A stretch of 64,000 nucleotides of DNA from Escherichia coli (lineage in GTDB: Bacteria > Pseudomonadota > Gammaproteobacteria > Enterobacterales > Enterobacteriaceae), in NCBI RefSeq assembly GCF_011045215.1, contig NZ_CP049201.1, one strand, 5' to 3'. Below, piece after piece: positions 3,428 to 62,107 of this stretch. The translations under genes were made by a program, and so were the position numbers. The number at the start of each line of letters is the position of its first letter. Position 1 is the first letter of the stretch. The notes below the pieces were generated by a model that was not told the origin of the DNA, searched no databases, and worked only from the letters and a program-made list of their open reading frames with translations.

Positions 3428-3515
3428 GGTGAGGTGTCCGAGTGGCTGAAGGAGCACGCCTGGAAAGTGTGTATACGGCAACGTATCGGGGGTTCGAATC
3501 CCCCCCTCACCGCCA
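3428..3515 (+). tRNA. serX: tRNA-Ser (anticodon GGA), serX
   Basis: 88-nt sequence GGTGAGGTGTCCGAGTGGCTGAAGGAGCACGCCTGGAAAGTGTGTATACGGCAACGTATCGGGGGTTCGAATCCCCCCCTCACCGCCA with long variable arm and CCA end; K-12 synteny between ghrA and ycdU. Confidence 0.95.
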
Positions 3516-56692: not shown

Positions 56693-56892
56693 TAATGGGT
56701 TAGTAAAATAGCAGCAACTCCCGCTACAATAGCGAAAATAGCTGCTATTCAGACCTGATGCTCTGAGAAATACTGAGCATTTGTAGATCTGATGTTTAAT
56801 AAACCGATAAGGTTAATTCAGTGCAGACTGTATTATTTACCACGAAATATCATTCATATTTCTCATTCTTAATACCTCCAGAAATTATTTCA

Positions 56893-57090
56893 CTAATACC
56901 TTTCCCCCGGTCTTTTCCCTTTCTCCAGAACCATAGTGTAAATATTAACGGCCCCACGTAAATTTCCGGGGCTGCATACGTCAACCTGATTCTGACAGGC
57001 AATTGACATCGCTGTTAATACTGACATTGCAACCAGAGTCAGAGGTACTTGTTTATTGTATTGAGCTTTAATTATTGCCTTCCCTATCAT
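56893..57090 (-). pseudogene. Duplicated 5' fragment of the DUF3987 gene
   Basis: 65-aa ORF ...LTLVAMSVLTAMSIACQNQVDVCSPGNLRGAVNIY... paralogous to residues ~35-80 of the 55241..56692 product. Confidence 0.6.
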
Positions 57091-57316
57091 TGATGGTCAC
57101 GTATATACTGAATACGGCATATCCGGTTTGATGTAAGACATAAATGCTTCCTTTTTCGTAATACGTTTCGGTTATAGCAGCAATTACCGCTACAATAGCG
57201 ACAATAGCTGCTCTTTCAACAATGAATGCTGGAAATTCTGTTTATCAATTAAACTTCTGGCTAAATTGTTCTTATGCTTCTTTTTCCTCCTGAGGTGATC
57301 ACGTGATGACAAAAAC

Positions 57317-57625
57317 TTATCTGCTCATGGTCATATCTGAAGAAAGCGTATGTCGCACTTCGTCATTAACACCTTTGACTGCTGATCTGGCAGGTACAGT
57401 ATGTAAAGTAAGCCATTCGTCAATAGCTGATGAACGCCAGCCCACAGAACCACTACCAAGACGTACCGGCCTGGGGAAGGTTGCATCGTAGTATTTCGAT
57501 AACGGATTCATTTTTTCGTAAATTGTCGAACGAGATATACCTAACAATTGGCTCAGTTCAGGCATCCGTAAGATGCGTGAAGGAGTCCAGCAGTATCCGG
57601 ATTGATCTGGCATTTTATCCCCCAT
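57317..57625 (-). CDS. alpA: AlpA-family phage-type transcriptional regulator (excisionase-like)
   Basis: LRMPELSQLLGISRSTIYEKMNPLSKYYDATFPRPVRLGSGSVGWRSSAIDEWL matches the AlpA HTH core; start uncertain (ORF extends to 57697). Confidence 0.75.
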   Translation of the reverse strand: MGDKMPDQSGYCWTPSRILRMPELSQLLGISRSTIYEKMNPLSKYYDATFPRPVRLGSGSVGWRSSAIDEWLTLHTVPARSAVKGVNDEVRHTLSSDMTMSR

Positions 57626-57836
57626 AGTGTGGTGAACTGTCGTTACAGTTTGTATTCCCCGGGTAAATTTGTCTGCGTAAAAAAATGGGCTGAGCAAAAA
57701 GACAATAAATAATTAAAAATCAATACGATAGAAAACAACAGCATTATTGTTATTTTACTTTCTCCTTATCACTGTCGATTCTCATTATCATTCATTGGTA
57801 AAAAAACAGCAAAAGAGGCCCTGGTAATGACTCCAG

Positions 57837-58229
57837 TCAGTAGTACAGTGTTTTCGATAAATGAACCAATGGCTTTTCGTGAATTTCCAGGGAGCGTGAA
57901 AAGCAAATCGTTTTCCGGGCTGGTCGTTTGATGTGAGTACGAAGTGTCAGATTGTTGCGCTCAATGCGCCGGGTAAATATCTTGCCGACAAGATGCTTAT
58001 CCTGTGGCATTTCTCTGGTATAACTGCTCCGGTTGTCTCTGGTTATCATGCCTGTGGAGAATGGCTTCAGGAGTTCCGGCAACTCACGACATGTTTCATC
58101 AGTGCGAGGACCAAAAGTGTAAGCCAGCACACCTCCAGATTTGGTGTTATACGCATACCAGTGCCACTGCTGACGAGCTTTGTTTTCGACAAAACTCCAT
58201 TGTTCATCAAGTTCGCAGATAAGCGCCAC
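57837..58229 (-). mobile_element. IS1-family transposase (InsB-like) remnant, diverged and truncated
   Basis: ICELDEQW...YAY...RIERNNLTLR resembles the IS1 InsB core; no intact InsA or terminal repeats identified. Confidence 0.45.
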
Positions 58230-58725
58230 ATCGGCACTGACGTCTGGAGATGTGGTTACTTTGCGTGGTGAGCGTTTTATAAAGTGAGAATGACGGTGTT
58301 GATATCCACCTTCAGCGTTCTGGAGCTATCGCGAACCCGACTCCGTTATGAACCATTTCAACAATTTGCTCTTTGATGCCTGGTTTTCGGGTTTCGTAGA
58401 TGTAATTCAGTTGAAATACACACATTTGCAGGATTAGCACTGGAAACGCTCATGATCTGAGGTGCTGTGATCATAATGGTACACTTTATAGGAATTACAG
58501 CGGGGAGAATGTACTGTAACTGTTGCCATATGGTCTCCAGATACCAATAGAATATCACATTAATCTATCGTCAGAAGGCATCACCGGGGCCTTCTGACAT
58601 AATCTGTTAATACGTGTACTATTACCCTGTTCAGAAAATATTGATTCAAAAATGAAAACCAGTTAACAGAAAAGCAAAATGATATAATGTTAAAATTTTA
58701 TATAGTGCAATAAAAGGAGAATGTT

Positions 58726-60543
58726 ATGTATAATTTTATCACTATAATGTATGATGTCTTTTCATGTTTTGGTGTTCTGGCTAAAAACCAGAATACCCGT
58801 GACATCCGAAATATTAAAAATTTTTCCTCACATCAACATTCACTGGGCGACATGTTTGATGAATTAATAAACATTATTGATAAAGAACAAGTATTGAGTA
58901 CAGAACAACGAAAAGTTATATTTAGGAGATATGAAGATCTCTATGTTAAGCTAATGCACTATTCTGTTTTTACAGACAAAACACATCAAATAATAAAACA
59001 AAAATATTTTAATGACATTGTACCAATGATTCTCGCACTCGACATCAGGAACACATATCGCCCGGATAATGAGATGGCATTTTACTATCATATTCATTCT
59101 TTTCTCACTCAGATACCGGATAATGAGGATGATATATATCATGCTGCAAGGACATATCTGCGAAATTACATTAAGTTATGTTTATCCGGATACACACCAG
59201 CGAATGCGCATTTCAAAGATATCTTTGATGGCGTATATGAATTCATTCGTAATATTCGCAAAAACAGTACACCAGGAAAAACAAAACTTACCGCAACTAT
59301 CAACACATGCAAAGAAACCTGTAAACATCTGCTTTATTTAAGTAATGAAGACAAGGAAAAAATAATTTCTGACTTAGATAAAATTCAAGTTGCATGTTAT
59401 TATCTCACCATATTACTGGCTTTCGAAAGACGAACTTCATTAACAAGCGCCCTGGCAACTTTATATAAAATGCTGATAAGCGAAAGAGAAGTTTCAGAAT
59501 ATGAATGCCAGTTATTATATTTAACCAACCCAATAGATGTAATGAATATACTGAACAAACACATATATTACTTTCCTAATGAGAACTCACCATTTTATAC
59601 ACTGAAAATTGACAGTGCATTATCGTGGGAGGCCATTGACGCAATACGAGACTATAGTATTTCTGATATTTATCTTTATCCTGAACAAAAAACAATAAAT
59701 TGTGTCGTTGAGATTGAAAACATTGTCTTTGGCGGTTACATTTATACATTGAACAACGGCGTCACATTACAAAACATAGAAAACACTTTAAAAGATTCTT
59801 CATGCCATTATGTCTTAAATGGCTATACAGAATTTGTTAACTGTTTGATACAACTTACTTCAGGAAAGACTGAAAGTGTTCATCGCACCATCAATAAACT
59901 GAACTATGAGAAATTACCTTTTGGATTTATCATTGCCGCGTTTGCTATACTAAAGATAGCATTTAAAATAAAATTCAGTAAAAATCATGTAAATATCCGA
60001 GCATTATTAAATGACATCAATTATTTTATGACTTATCAGGGCGAGTCCATTAACCTTATTTCACTGGATCACGAATACCCAGAGTCCTGTCTTCAAAATG
60101 ACACAAACACATATTTATTAGGAAGAGTAATATTTCTGTATAACTCAATGATTTATAAGTTCATAAACTGTCAGGAACATGAAACCAATAACATTCACTC
60201 AGCTATGATAAATAACCTATTACAGGAAGTTGATATAGCCCTTGGTAAAATAAATAACATTATAGACAGCAGAAATATATCAACCCCCCATGAACTAGCA
60301 AATATTCTTACCCGCGAAAAAATACTTACAACACGGGAAAAAAAAGGAAACCTGATAAGCCTGTTTGATGGATTCACTTTATTCCATTGTGTTGGAATGA
60401 TAACCTTTCTTATCCATTATCTCAGAACACCTGAAGAAAAAGTTGAAAATATATTTATGTTATATGGTGCAGATAAAAACAATAAACTACGCAGAAGACT
60501 GATTTATGACGCACTAGGAATAATTCAGTCTCAGCAGGAGTGA
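58726..60543 (+). CDS. Large hypothetical protein (605 aa), very AT-rich, no recognised domain
   Basis: Long uninterrupted ORF with Asn/Ile/Tyr/Lys-rich composition; convergent with the integrase gene. Confidence 0.6.
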   Translation: MYNFITIMYDVFSCFGVLAKNQNTRDIRNIKNFSSHQHSLGDMFDELINIIDKEQVLSTEQRKVIFRRYEDLYVKLMHYSVFTDKTHQIIKQKYFNDIVPMILALDIRNTYRPDNEMAFYYHIHSFLTQIPDNEDDIYHAARTYLRNYIKLCLSGYTPANAHFKDIFDGVYEFIRNIRKNSTPGKTKLTATINTCKETCKHLLYLSNEDKEKIISDLDKIQVACYYLTILLAFERRTSLTSALATLYKMLISEREVSEYECQLLYLTNPIDVMNILNKHIYYFPNENSPFYTLKIDSALSWEAIDAIRDYSISDIYLYPEQKTINCVVEIENIVFGGYIYTLNNGVTLQNIENTLKDSSCHYVLNGYTEFVNCLIQLTSGKTESVHRTINKLNYEKLPFGFIIAAFAILKIAFKIKFSKNHVNIRALLNDINYFMTYQGESINLISLDHEYPESCLQNDTNTYLLGRVIFLYNSMIYKFINCQEHETNNIHSAMINNLLQEVDIALGKINNIIDSRNISTPHELANILTREKILTTREKKGNLISLFDGFTLFHCVGMITFLIHYLRTPEEKVENIFMLYGADKNNKLRRRLIYDALGIIQSQQE

Positions 60544-60730: not shown

Positions 60731-61933
60731 TTATTTATTCACAATTTGAGACATCACATAATCCGCCCATGCCTGCATCATCGGTACACGCTGCTCCAGT
60801 AGATCAGTGCGATGATATGCCGCCTCAACCTTATTTTTCAGCGTATGAGCGAGCGCCCTTTCCGCCAGATCCCGCGAATACCCCTGTTCACTACACCAGT
60901 CCCTGAATGTTGAGCGAAAACCATGTGCCGTGGCAACTCGCCCCGGAATGTCACTGACGGCTTTCTTTTTACGCAGAAAACTTGTCAACACCATATCGGA
61001 AAGGATCTGCTGCTTTCTGGGTGAAGGGAACACCAGTTCATCATGCAGGCCACGTATATTTTCCAGAATGTAAATAGCCTGCCGGGATAAAGGAACACGA
61101 TGCTGTAGCCTAGCTTTCATTCTTTCTGCAGGTATAGTCCATACCCGCTTATGAAAATCAATTTCAGCCCAGCGCATTCCCCTGGCTTCGCCCGAGCGAG
61201 TTGCTGTAAGTATCACCATTAATAACAGTGCGCGGGTAACATTATAAGGTTCATCACTATACACACTGGTCGCCACAAAAAGCGGTAACTGCCTCCAGGG
61301 CATTGCGGGTTGGTGTTCATCACGTCCTCTTGTCTGCTGAGGAAGCAAATGGTCAACCACATCAACAGGATTTGCCACACAAAAACCGTGCGCCCATCCC
61401 CACTGCATAACAACATGAATGCGCTGTTTAACCCGGCTTGCCGTTTCTGACAAGGTTAACCAGACTGGACGCAATGTTTCTGCCACGTCCGCAGCCGTAA
61501 TCGAATCCAGCGTTTTTGCTCCCAGTTGAGGAAACGCGTAATTCTCAAGCGTCGATAACCACTGCCTTACATGCTTTGGATTTTCCCATCCAGGAGACAG
61601 TTCTGCATGTACACGCCTGGCTGCATCGGCAAATGTTGGGATAACGACTTTCTCAGATTCAGCCTTTTTAATCTCCAGAGGATCATCACCTGCAGCAAGT
61701 TGCTCTCGCATTATCCGGGCAGTACGTGCAGCTTCAGCAATACTGACCTCTGGGTAAGTTCCCAATCCAGCATTACGTCTTTTTTGTGTCACCGGACTTA
61801 CATAACGAAAAACCCATTTCCCCCGCCCCTTTACTGAAGAAGGATGAAGGGTCAGTCCGGTAATTCCCCCATGGGGCAATGGTTTGTCATCAGGTTTGAT
61901 ATGTCTTGCTTTCGTATCCGTCAATACTGCCAT
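60731..61933 (-). CDS. P4-type tyrosine integrase
   Basis: 400-aa ORF with catalytic R...HxxR...Y core (ATAHGFRSTFRDW; C-terminal tyrosine region) adjacent to the tRNA-3'-end repeat. Confidence 0.9.
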   Translation of the reverse strand: MAVLTDTKARHIKPDDKPLPHGGITGLTLHPSSVKGRGKWVFRYVSPVTQKRRNAGLGTYPEVSIAEAARTARIMREQLAAGDDPLEIKKAESEKVVIPTFADAARRVHAELSPGWENPKHVRQWLSTLENYAFPQLGAKTLDSITAADVAETLRPVWLTLSETASRVKQRIHVVMQWGWAHGFCVANPVDVVDHLLPQQTRGRDEHQPAMPWRQLPLFVATSVYSDEPYNVTRALLLMVILTATRSGEARGMRWAEIDFHKRVWTIPAERMKARLQHRVPLSRQAIYILENIRGLHDELVFPSPRKQQILSDMVLTSFLRKKKAVSDIPGRVATAHGFRSTFRDWCSEQGYSRDLAERALAHTLKNKVEAAYHRTDLLEQRVPMMQAWADYVMSQIVNK

Positions 61934-62090: not shown

Positions 62091-62107
62091 GGTCCCCCTC
62101 ACCGCCA
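62091..62107. repeat. Direct repeat of the serX 3' end (island distal att site)
   Basis: ggtccccctcaccgcca; ccccctcaccgcca matches serX 3' end at 3502..3515. Confidence 0.8.

Follow-up and report, generated by a model that had tools for sequence, protein, structure and literature searches.

A decayed, complete-length IS1-family element of the IS1N subgroup fixed at a single site in an Escherichia coli tRNA-Ser island

Results

The island and the genes around the element

The window analysed here, a 64-kb stretch of Escherichia coli DNA (64,000 nucleotides), is a serX-type island. Its tRNA-Ser(GGA) gene lies at 3428-3515, and a 14-nt exact repeat of the 3' end of that gene is found at 62094-62107, just past the integrase gene; the island between them is about 58.6 kb long. 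The integrase is of the P4 type and is encoded at 60731-61933 on the minus strand, at the end of the island that is far from the tRNA gene, with ycdU and IS200C next to it. The subject of this report is an insertion sequence (IS) that lies between alpA and an open reading frame (ORF) of 605 codons, as the initial annotation of this DNA had placed it. The alpA gene is on the minus strand and, with the start used by RefSeq, spans 57317..57613 (the alternative end is at 57697); its product belongs to the AlpA family (PF05930); the 605-aa ORF is on the plus strand at 58726..60543.

The 605-aa ORF is AT-rich (approximately 32% GC), adjoins the integrase gene and had no match in Pfam, NCBIfam, PADLOC or PHROGs. 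It was found beside the IS in all seven of the loci that we inspected (six RefSeq records and a diverged allele of the island, L011), and its upstream flank is present in approximately 1031 E. coli genomes. Its dN/dS of 0.19 against L011 suggests purifying selection. The ORF is a genuine gene that occupies the variable int-alpA slot of an island with defence cargo, and it deserves more attention than the IS itself. Between alpA and yfjI there is an ORF of 65 codons (56893-57090, minus strand) whose product is similar to the N-terminal part of the 483-aa YfjI/DUF3987 protein encoded next to it. In strains A4 and Esc24 its RefSeq name is 'DUF3987 domain-containing protein', and among the PHROGs it weakly matches a DNA helicase (E=1.6e-6). 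The ORF seems to have arisen by duplication of the 5' part of yfjI. The island cargo at about 36900-57800 matches O157:H7 and bovine strains and encodes a hemagglutinin-repeat protein and a type I Zorya system against phage, of which zorA, zorC and zorD appear by name. In a 25-kb stretch of cargo, any single genome matches at most 66%, and the island in the window is therefore a mosaic that is not fully represented among complete genomes.

Identity and ends of the element

The ORF listing gave a minus-strand ORF of 130 aa with a GTG start at 57837..58229. Its product matched the Pfam profile PF03400 (DDE_Tnp_IS1) with E=4.8e-56 and 189 bits (cutoff 24) over profile positions 1-124 of 131, and the NCBIfam profile NF033558 ('IS1 family transposase') with 125.8 bits (cutoff 100), the latter match being limited to profile positions 95-199 of 199, the C-terminal half only. 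These IS1 matches in Pfam and NCBIfam greatly exceed what chance would give and uphold the identification of the 130-aa product as the core of IS1 InsB. The initial annotation was wrong in holding that an upstream InsA frame is lacking: PF03811 (E=3e-11) and PF12759 (E=1.2e-10) both have matches upstream on that strand, in pieces spread over three frames, and with PF03400 all three of the IS1 domains in Pfam are matched within the element.

End-to-end alignment with intact 766-bp relatives and with IS1N identifies a whole, defective IS1-family element of 763 bp at 57823..58585 on the minus strand; the extent of 57837-58350 that had been assigned to it was too narrow. The references were elements from a Klebsiella plasmid, an Enterobacter plasmid and a Shigella plasmid, together with the PGAP-annotated IS1N. 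The alignment with intact IS1-family copies is collinear over the full element, from GGTGATGCC at 58585 (the left inverted repeat, IRL) through to GGAGTCATTACC at 57823 (the right inverted repeat, IRR), and the length of 763 bp compares with 766 bp in four intact relatives and 768 bp in IS1A. The features of IS1-family membership are present: a DDE domain, the zinc ribbon and helix-turn-helix (HTH) of insA (as homologous sequence, the gene itself being broken), terminal inverted repeats of about 23 bp and a length of about 0.77 kb.

A search for IS1 terminal inverted repeats around 57800..58600, as the initial annotation had proposed, found both of them. IRL (58563..58585, minus strand) reads GGTGATGCCTTCTGACGATAGAT on the minus strand and IRR (57823..57845, plus strand) reads GGTAATGACTCCAGTCAGTAGTA inward on the plus strand; they align with the IRL and the IRR, respectively, of all of the relatives. 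The first 8 nt of IRL are the same as those of the IS1A IRL (GGTGATGC) and the first 13 nt of IRR are identical to those of the IS1A IRR (GGTAATGACTCCA). Both ends begin GGT(A/G)ATG, as GGTGATGCC in the IRL that ends at 58585 and as GGTAATGACTCC in the IRR that starts at 57823, and they agree with each other at 14 of 23 positions. They form the sole pair of IS1-type inverted-repeat cores in the 64-kb window.

The element is bordered by two 8-mers that are probably imperfect copies of a target-site duplication, GGGGCCTT beside IRL (58586..58593) and GAGGCCCT beside IRR (57815..57822), both written as on the plus strand. They match at six of eight positions, and only 0.8% of the 8-mer pairs that lie 763 bp apart in the window match as well (p approximately 0.008). 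In two of the intact relatives the 8-bp duplication is perfect and lies in this same register (CACCATGA and CGGCAAAA). Since the presumed duplication is imperfect both here and in L011, where the flanking 8-mers match at five of eight positions, transposition into exactly this site is only a likely reading of the flanks. The longest inverted repeat of the neighbourhood pairs 57816-57843 with 58565-58592; it seems to run 7 nt into the flanks because the core of the duplication, GGCC, is palindromic.

The junction of IRL with its flank also carries a perfect 10-bp hairpin at 58570-58598 (GTCAGAAGGC, a 9-nt loop, then GCCTTCTGAC). There are about 11 such 10-bp hairpins in the 64 kb, compared with about 0.85 in shuffled sequences. 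IRL reads CTGAC here where the intact relatives read CAATC, and L011 is different again. Three adjacent substitutions would have made IRL complementary to its flank, in what looks like quasipalindrome-templated mutation.

Lesions in insA, the frameshift site and insB

Alignment against the intact relatives was used to map the lesions. Three-frame translation shows that insA is split over all three frames. The N-terminal fragment, with the zinc ribbon (58434..58529, minus strand), has its ATG at 58529 and runs for 31 codons to a TAA stop at 58434-58436; it lies in the ORF at 58434..58547 (minus strand) that gave the PF03811 match. The stop occupies insA codon 32, where the relatives have Lys or Arg codons, and the first Cys of the zinc ribbon is replaced by Ser. 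Both of these changes are common to all seven close E. coli copies and neither is found in L011. The C-terminal HTH fragment that matches PF12759 (58312..58440, minus strand) is in a different frame, displaced by a lineage-specific +2 insertion of 'TG' at about 58422-58423, and it is broken again by a 1-nt deletion at about 58339 that is private to the copy in the window.

IS1 requires the fusion protein InsAB', which is made through a low-frequency -1 frameshift between insA and insB, and an A-run motif is the slippery site that gives access to insB' in the -1 frame (10.1101/2024.03.01.582297; PMC4066793). By alignment, the former site of programmed -1 frameshifting (58274..58280, minus strand) reads ATAAAAC in the window; it is AAAAAAC in the O157-type copies, in L011 and in the intact relatives, the variable site being 58279. 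The A-run heptamer is not intact here and the insA/insB frame relation has been lost through indels. The slippery site was present ancestrally and has been lost in the window's copy, as is expected of a pseudogene of the IS1 family.

In the insB-derived ORF of 130 aa, the final 13 codons are garbled by three 1-nt deletions (at about 57878, 57851 and 57848). The Trp that follows the second catalytic Asp, conserved in the family, is lost: SDDWGS in the relatives has become RDNRSS. Given that IS1 needs the frameshift product InsAB', these lesions mean that the copy in the window can produce neither InsA nor InsAB' and so cannot make transposase. An intact transposase and several insertion sites in the population are traits of an active IS, and neither was found for this element.

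Distribution in E. coli and comparison with the diverged allele

In a megablast search, 1026 of 5426 complete E. coli genomes, about a fifth, had a copy at 95-99% identity that spans 80% or more of the element. It occupies a median of one place per genome among the carriers, and two at most. None of the 5426 genomes has an identical (100%) copy; the best match is 99.2%. The gene order is integrase, 605-aa gene, IS1 pseudogene, alpA-type regulator and yfjI in all seven inspected loci, and RefSeq carries the label "IS1 family transposase; frameshifted; internal stop" in each of the six records that we checked (95.7-99.2% identity). An empty site, sought as 120 nt of joined flanks, is not contiguous in any of the 5426 E. 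coli genomes. With no E. coli genome having the flanks minus the IS, the int/605-aa/alpA module behaves as one unit, and the IS is fixed in it.

L011 (GCA_001893635.1) is a more diverged allele of the island in which the junctions of the IS are the same. The InsB of this allele is 84% identical to that of the window, and the element with 60-nt flanks has 88.7% DNA identity. L011 keeps the zinc-ribbon Cys, does not have the TAA stop, and has lesions of its own: a frameshifting 13-bp deletion in insA and a D-to-E replacement of the second catalytic Asp. The only lesion that it has in common with the other copies is the -1 deletion at about 57878. The same junctions combined with mostly different lesions indicate a single insertion that was followed by independent decay.

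The rate of that decay is close to neutral. Over the insB core, dN/dS is 0.86 between the window and L011 and 0.65 between the O157-type copies and L011, values that are compatible with neutrality (p=1.0 and p=0.22, respectively), and an omega of 0.04 is rejected at approximately 1e-14; the intact relatives have a dN/dS of 0.02-0.04. Between the window and the O157-type copies dN/dS is 0.33, nominally below neutrality (p=0.033) and derived from only 12 substitutions. The divergence of the IS between the window and L011 (Jukes-Cantor distance 0.103) is inside the range of dS for the flanking genes, 0.06-0.33. For the window and O157-type lineages it is 0.035 against a flanking dS of 0.014, an excess of about 2.5-fold that is unpredicted by simple neutral decay on a shared genealogy and probably reflects mosaic recombination.

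Recombination among island alleles

In a sliding comparison against six island alleles, identity between the lineages is approximately 99% on either side of the IS and there is no step at the IS. A map of informative sites places mosaic breakpoints at about 56.6-56.7, 57.70-57.73, 58.09-58.13 (inside insB) and 58.9-59.2 kb (inside the 605-aa gene). Strain A4 is such a mosaic: its derived states are alternately those of the window lineage and those of the O157-type lineage, switching near 57.70-57.73, 58.09-58.13 and 58.9-59.2 kb, and the yfjI region shows yet another pattern. A patch of about 1 kb at 57589-58556, which takes in the 5' end and leader of alpA and the greater part of the IS, differs by 3-5% between the window and the O157-type lineage, compared with a flanking dS of 0.014; it is most simply a segment with a deeper coalescence. 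Since the breakpoints are scattered through the module, with one inside insB, recombination is pervasive and is not tied to the ends of the IS. The suggestion in the initial annotation that the insertion may mark a recombination boundary finds no support in these data, or in the finding that none of the 5426 E. coli genomes has the flanks without the IS. There is a step in GC content at the locus, from about 40% on the alpA side to 28-34% in the 605-aa gene, and it falls in the intergenic region between two divergent genes, a place in which a step of this kind is to be expected in any case.

Affiliation with the IS1N subgroup

The element is only 50% identical to IS1A in nucleotide sequence, and 41-44% identical in amino acid sequence over the InsB core (41% for the copy in the window). 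The initial annotation had called the product substantially diverged, and by this measure it is; most of that distance is a matter of subgroup identity, not of decay. With IS1N-type elements the DNA identity is 69-74%, and the amino acid identity in the InsB core is about 80%, rising to 85% between IS1N-type transposases and an ancestor of the fossil reconstructed by parsimony. Much of the apparent divergence from IS1 is there because the element belongs to an IS1N-like subgroup, with decay superimposed on it: dN from the window to the intact relatives is 0.11-0.15, compared with 0.04-0.07 among the intact relatives themselves. A nucleotide identity of approximately 95% is the range used for calling two copies the same IS. 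At 69-74% to the IS1N type, the element would count as a separate member of the family.

A live parent was sought in the plasmid collection, where the best non-self match is only 74% identical at the nucleotide level. Among 5.8 billion sequences there is no full-length protein at more than 80% identity, and every one of the database proteins at 91% identity or above is an InsB-only fragment of 98-154 aa. Our literature search found no published description of this particular fossil. One source names an O157-type copy a 'putative IS1nuxi transposase'. The reference copy from a Shigella flexneri plasmid (L004; NZ_CP034059.1, 193271-194027) has no pseudogene flag; in it Ala replaces the conserved Glu of RIERNN (giving IARNNRTLR) and there are other odd substitutions, so this copy may itself be inactive.

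Discussion

The element between alpA and the 605-aa gene is an ordinary, already-annotated pseudogene of the IS1 family. It had been taken for an old, decayed remnant of an insertion; it is indeed an old and decayed IS1-family transposase pseudogene, and the remnant reading falls because the element, at 763 bp, is of complete length. We explain the locus by one ancient insertion of an IS1N-subgroup element, followed by passive inheritance and near-neutral decay in the core of an E. coli tRNA-Ser island, and we put the probability of this explanation at about 90%. An IS of the IS1N subgroup would have transposed once into the intergenic region from which alpA and the 605-aa gene diverge, in an ancestor of the widespread tRNA-Ser (serX-type) island core, making an 8-bp target duplication as it did so. 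The transposase would then have been lost and the element carried passively with the island, decaying at a roughly neutral rate and independently in each island lineage; the original transposition and the order of the lesions are inferred. What is left would now be mechanistically inert, a molecular fossil with, presumably, no present function whatever.

A truncated remnant, in which only the InsB core is left after deletion of insA and of one end or both, and in which the stump marks a junction of island modules, might be suspected from the fact that the 130-aa insB ORF is the only open one and from the drop in GC content from about 40% to about 30% across the locus. Truncation is ruled out by the two InsA domains upstream of insB, by the presence of both inverted repeats and by the near-full length (763 bp, against 766 bp in the intact relatives); as a module junction the IS is at odds with divergence that shows no step there and with breakpoints that are scattered, one of them inside insB. 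The chance that this reading is correct is minimal. It is equally hard to credit that the 130-aa ORF has been domesticated, its InsB-only product being kept for a useful role in DNA binding or regulation. All copies examined have the ORF open (130-154 aa), gene callers predict products of 98-154 aa and dN/dS is 0.33 between the closest lineages; by an informal estimate, it is not improbable that the insB frame would stay open by chance at this divergence. In the deeper and better-powered comparison dN/dS is 0.65-0.86, and variable sites are distributed 9:5:7 over the codon positions. The second catalytic Asp has become Glu in L011 and the E. coli copies no longer have the family-conserved Trp, different indels have given the lineages different C-termini, and the ORF begins at an internal GTG with no evident expression signals of its own. 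We reject domestication on the dN/dS values and on the loss of catalytic and conserved residues.

The dead IS might instead have been exapted for regulation, insulating the divergent promoters of alpA and the 605-aa gene or supplying signals to them, by read-through from the IRL promoter toward alpA or through the hairpin at the junction of IRL. All genomes that have the module also have the IS, which is oriented toward alpA and lies 209 bp upstream of that gene and 140 bp upstream of the 605-aa gene, and the 10-bp hairpin over the junction of IRL with its flank is perfect. Yet the IS evolves faster than its flanks and has no conserved sub-block, and the hairpin is not found in L011. A promoter and terminator scan found four promoter-like sites against 4.5 expected from shuffled sequences, which is no enrichment, and the candidate promoters of both alpA and the 605-aa gene lie outside the IS. 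An Rfam scan of 56800-59000 at a permissive threshold returned two chance-level matches only (E=0.99). Fixation is explained equally well by the absence of a mechanism for precise excision, and we regard a regulatory role of this kind as very unlikely. Near-neutral decay of a single, passively inherited insertion remains our preferred explanation for the locus.

In itself the element matters little: it is an IS1-family pseudogene whose annotation is correct, and about one in five complete E. coli genomes has it. Its anatomy is corrected here: it is a complete fossil with both of its ends and not a stump without InsA. A near-neutral fossil at one site can be used as a phylogenetic marker, and it indicates that the integrase-proximal core of these tRNA-Ser islands comes from one ancestor and was later shuffled by homologous recombination. 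A more speculative proposal, which we consider possible and somewhat doubtful, is that the fossil is the only surviving trace of an IS1N-subgroup lineage that has no living copy in public data and that became fixed through a single insertion in the ancestor of the int/605-aa/alpA/yfjI core. If this were true, the 763-bp unconstrained segment would be a neutral marker for dating the island core and for mapping recombination among its alleles. In a bolder version of the same proposal, the fossil may persist since it rewired the divergent alpA/605-aa promoter region.

The nearest known systems are IS1N (the iso-IS1 'nu' of Shigella dysenteriae) and the 766-bp elements on Klebsiella pKP121-2 and Enterobacter bugandensis pEC105227L, which are in the same length class and have the same GGT(A/G)ATG termini. 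The layout of this group, the zinc ribbon and HTH of insA, then A6C, then insB, is also that of the element. Unlike those elements, the copy in the window has no functional transposase, owing to its stop, its frameshifts and the lost Cys and Trp, and it is a single fixed copy, not a dispersed multicopy element. Canonical IS1A (E. coli K-12, 768 bp) shares the Pfam and NCBIfam family, the architecture and the terminal 8-13 nt of each inverted repeat, although it belongs to a different subgroup. The pseudogenes annotated by RefSeq/PGAP in serX/serW-type islands, such as CIW80_RS22880 in Nissle 1917 and CDCO157_RS30975 in Xuzhou21, are the same element at the same locus and are 96-99% identical to it; compared with these copies, the one in the window alone has the 1-nt deletion at about 58339.
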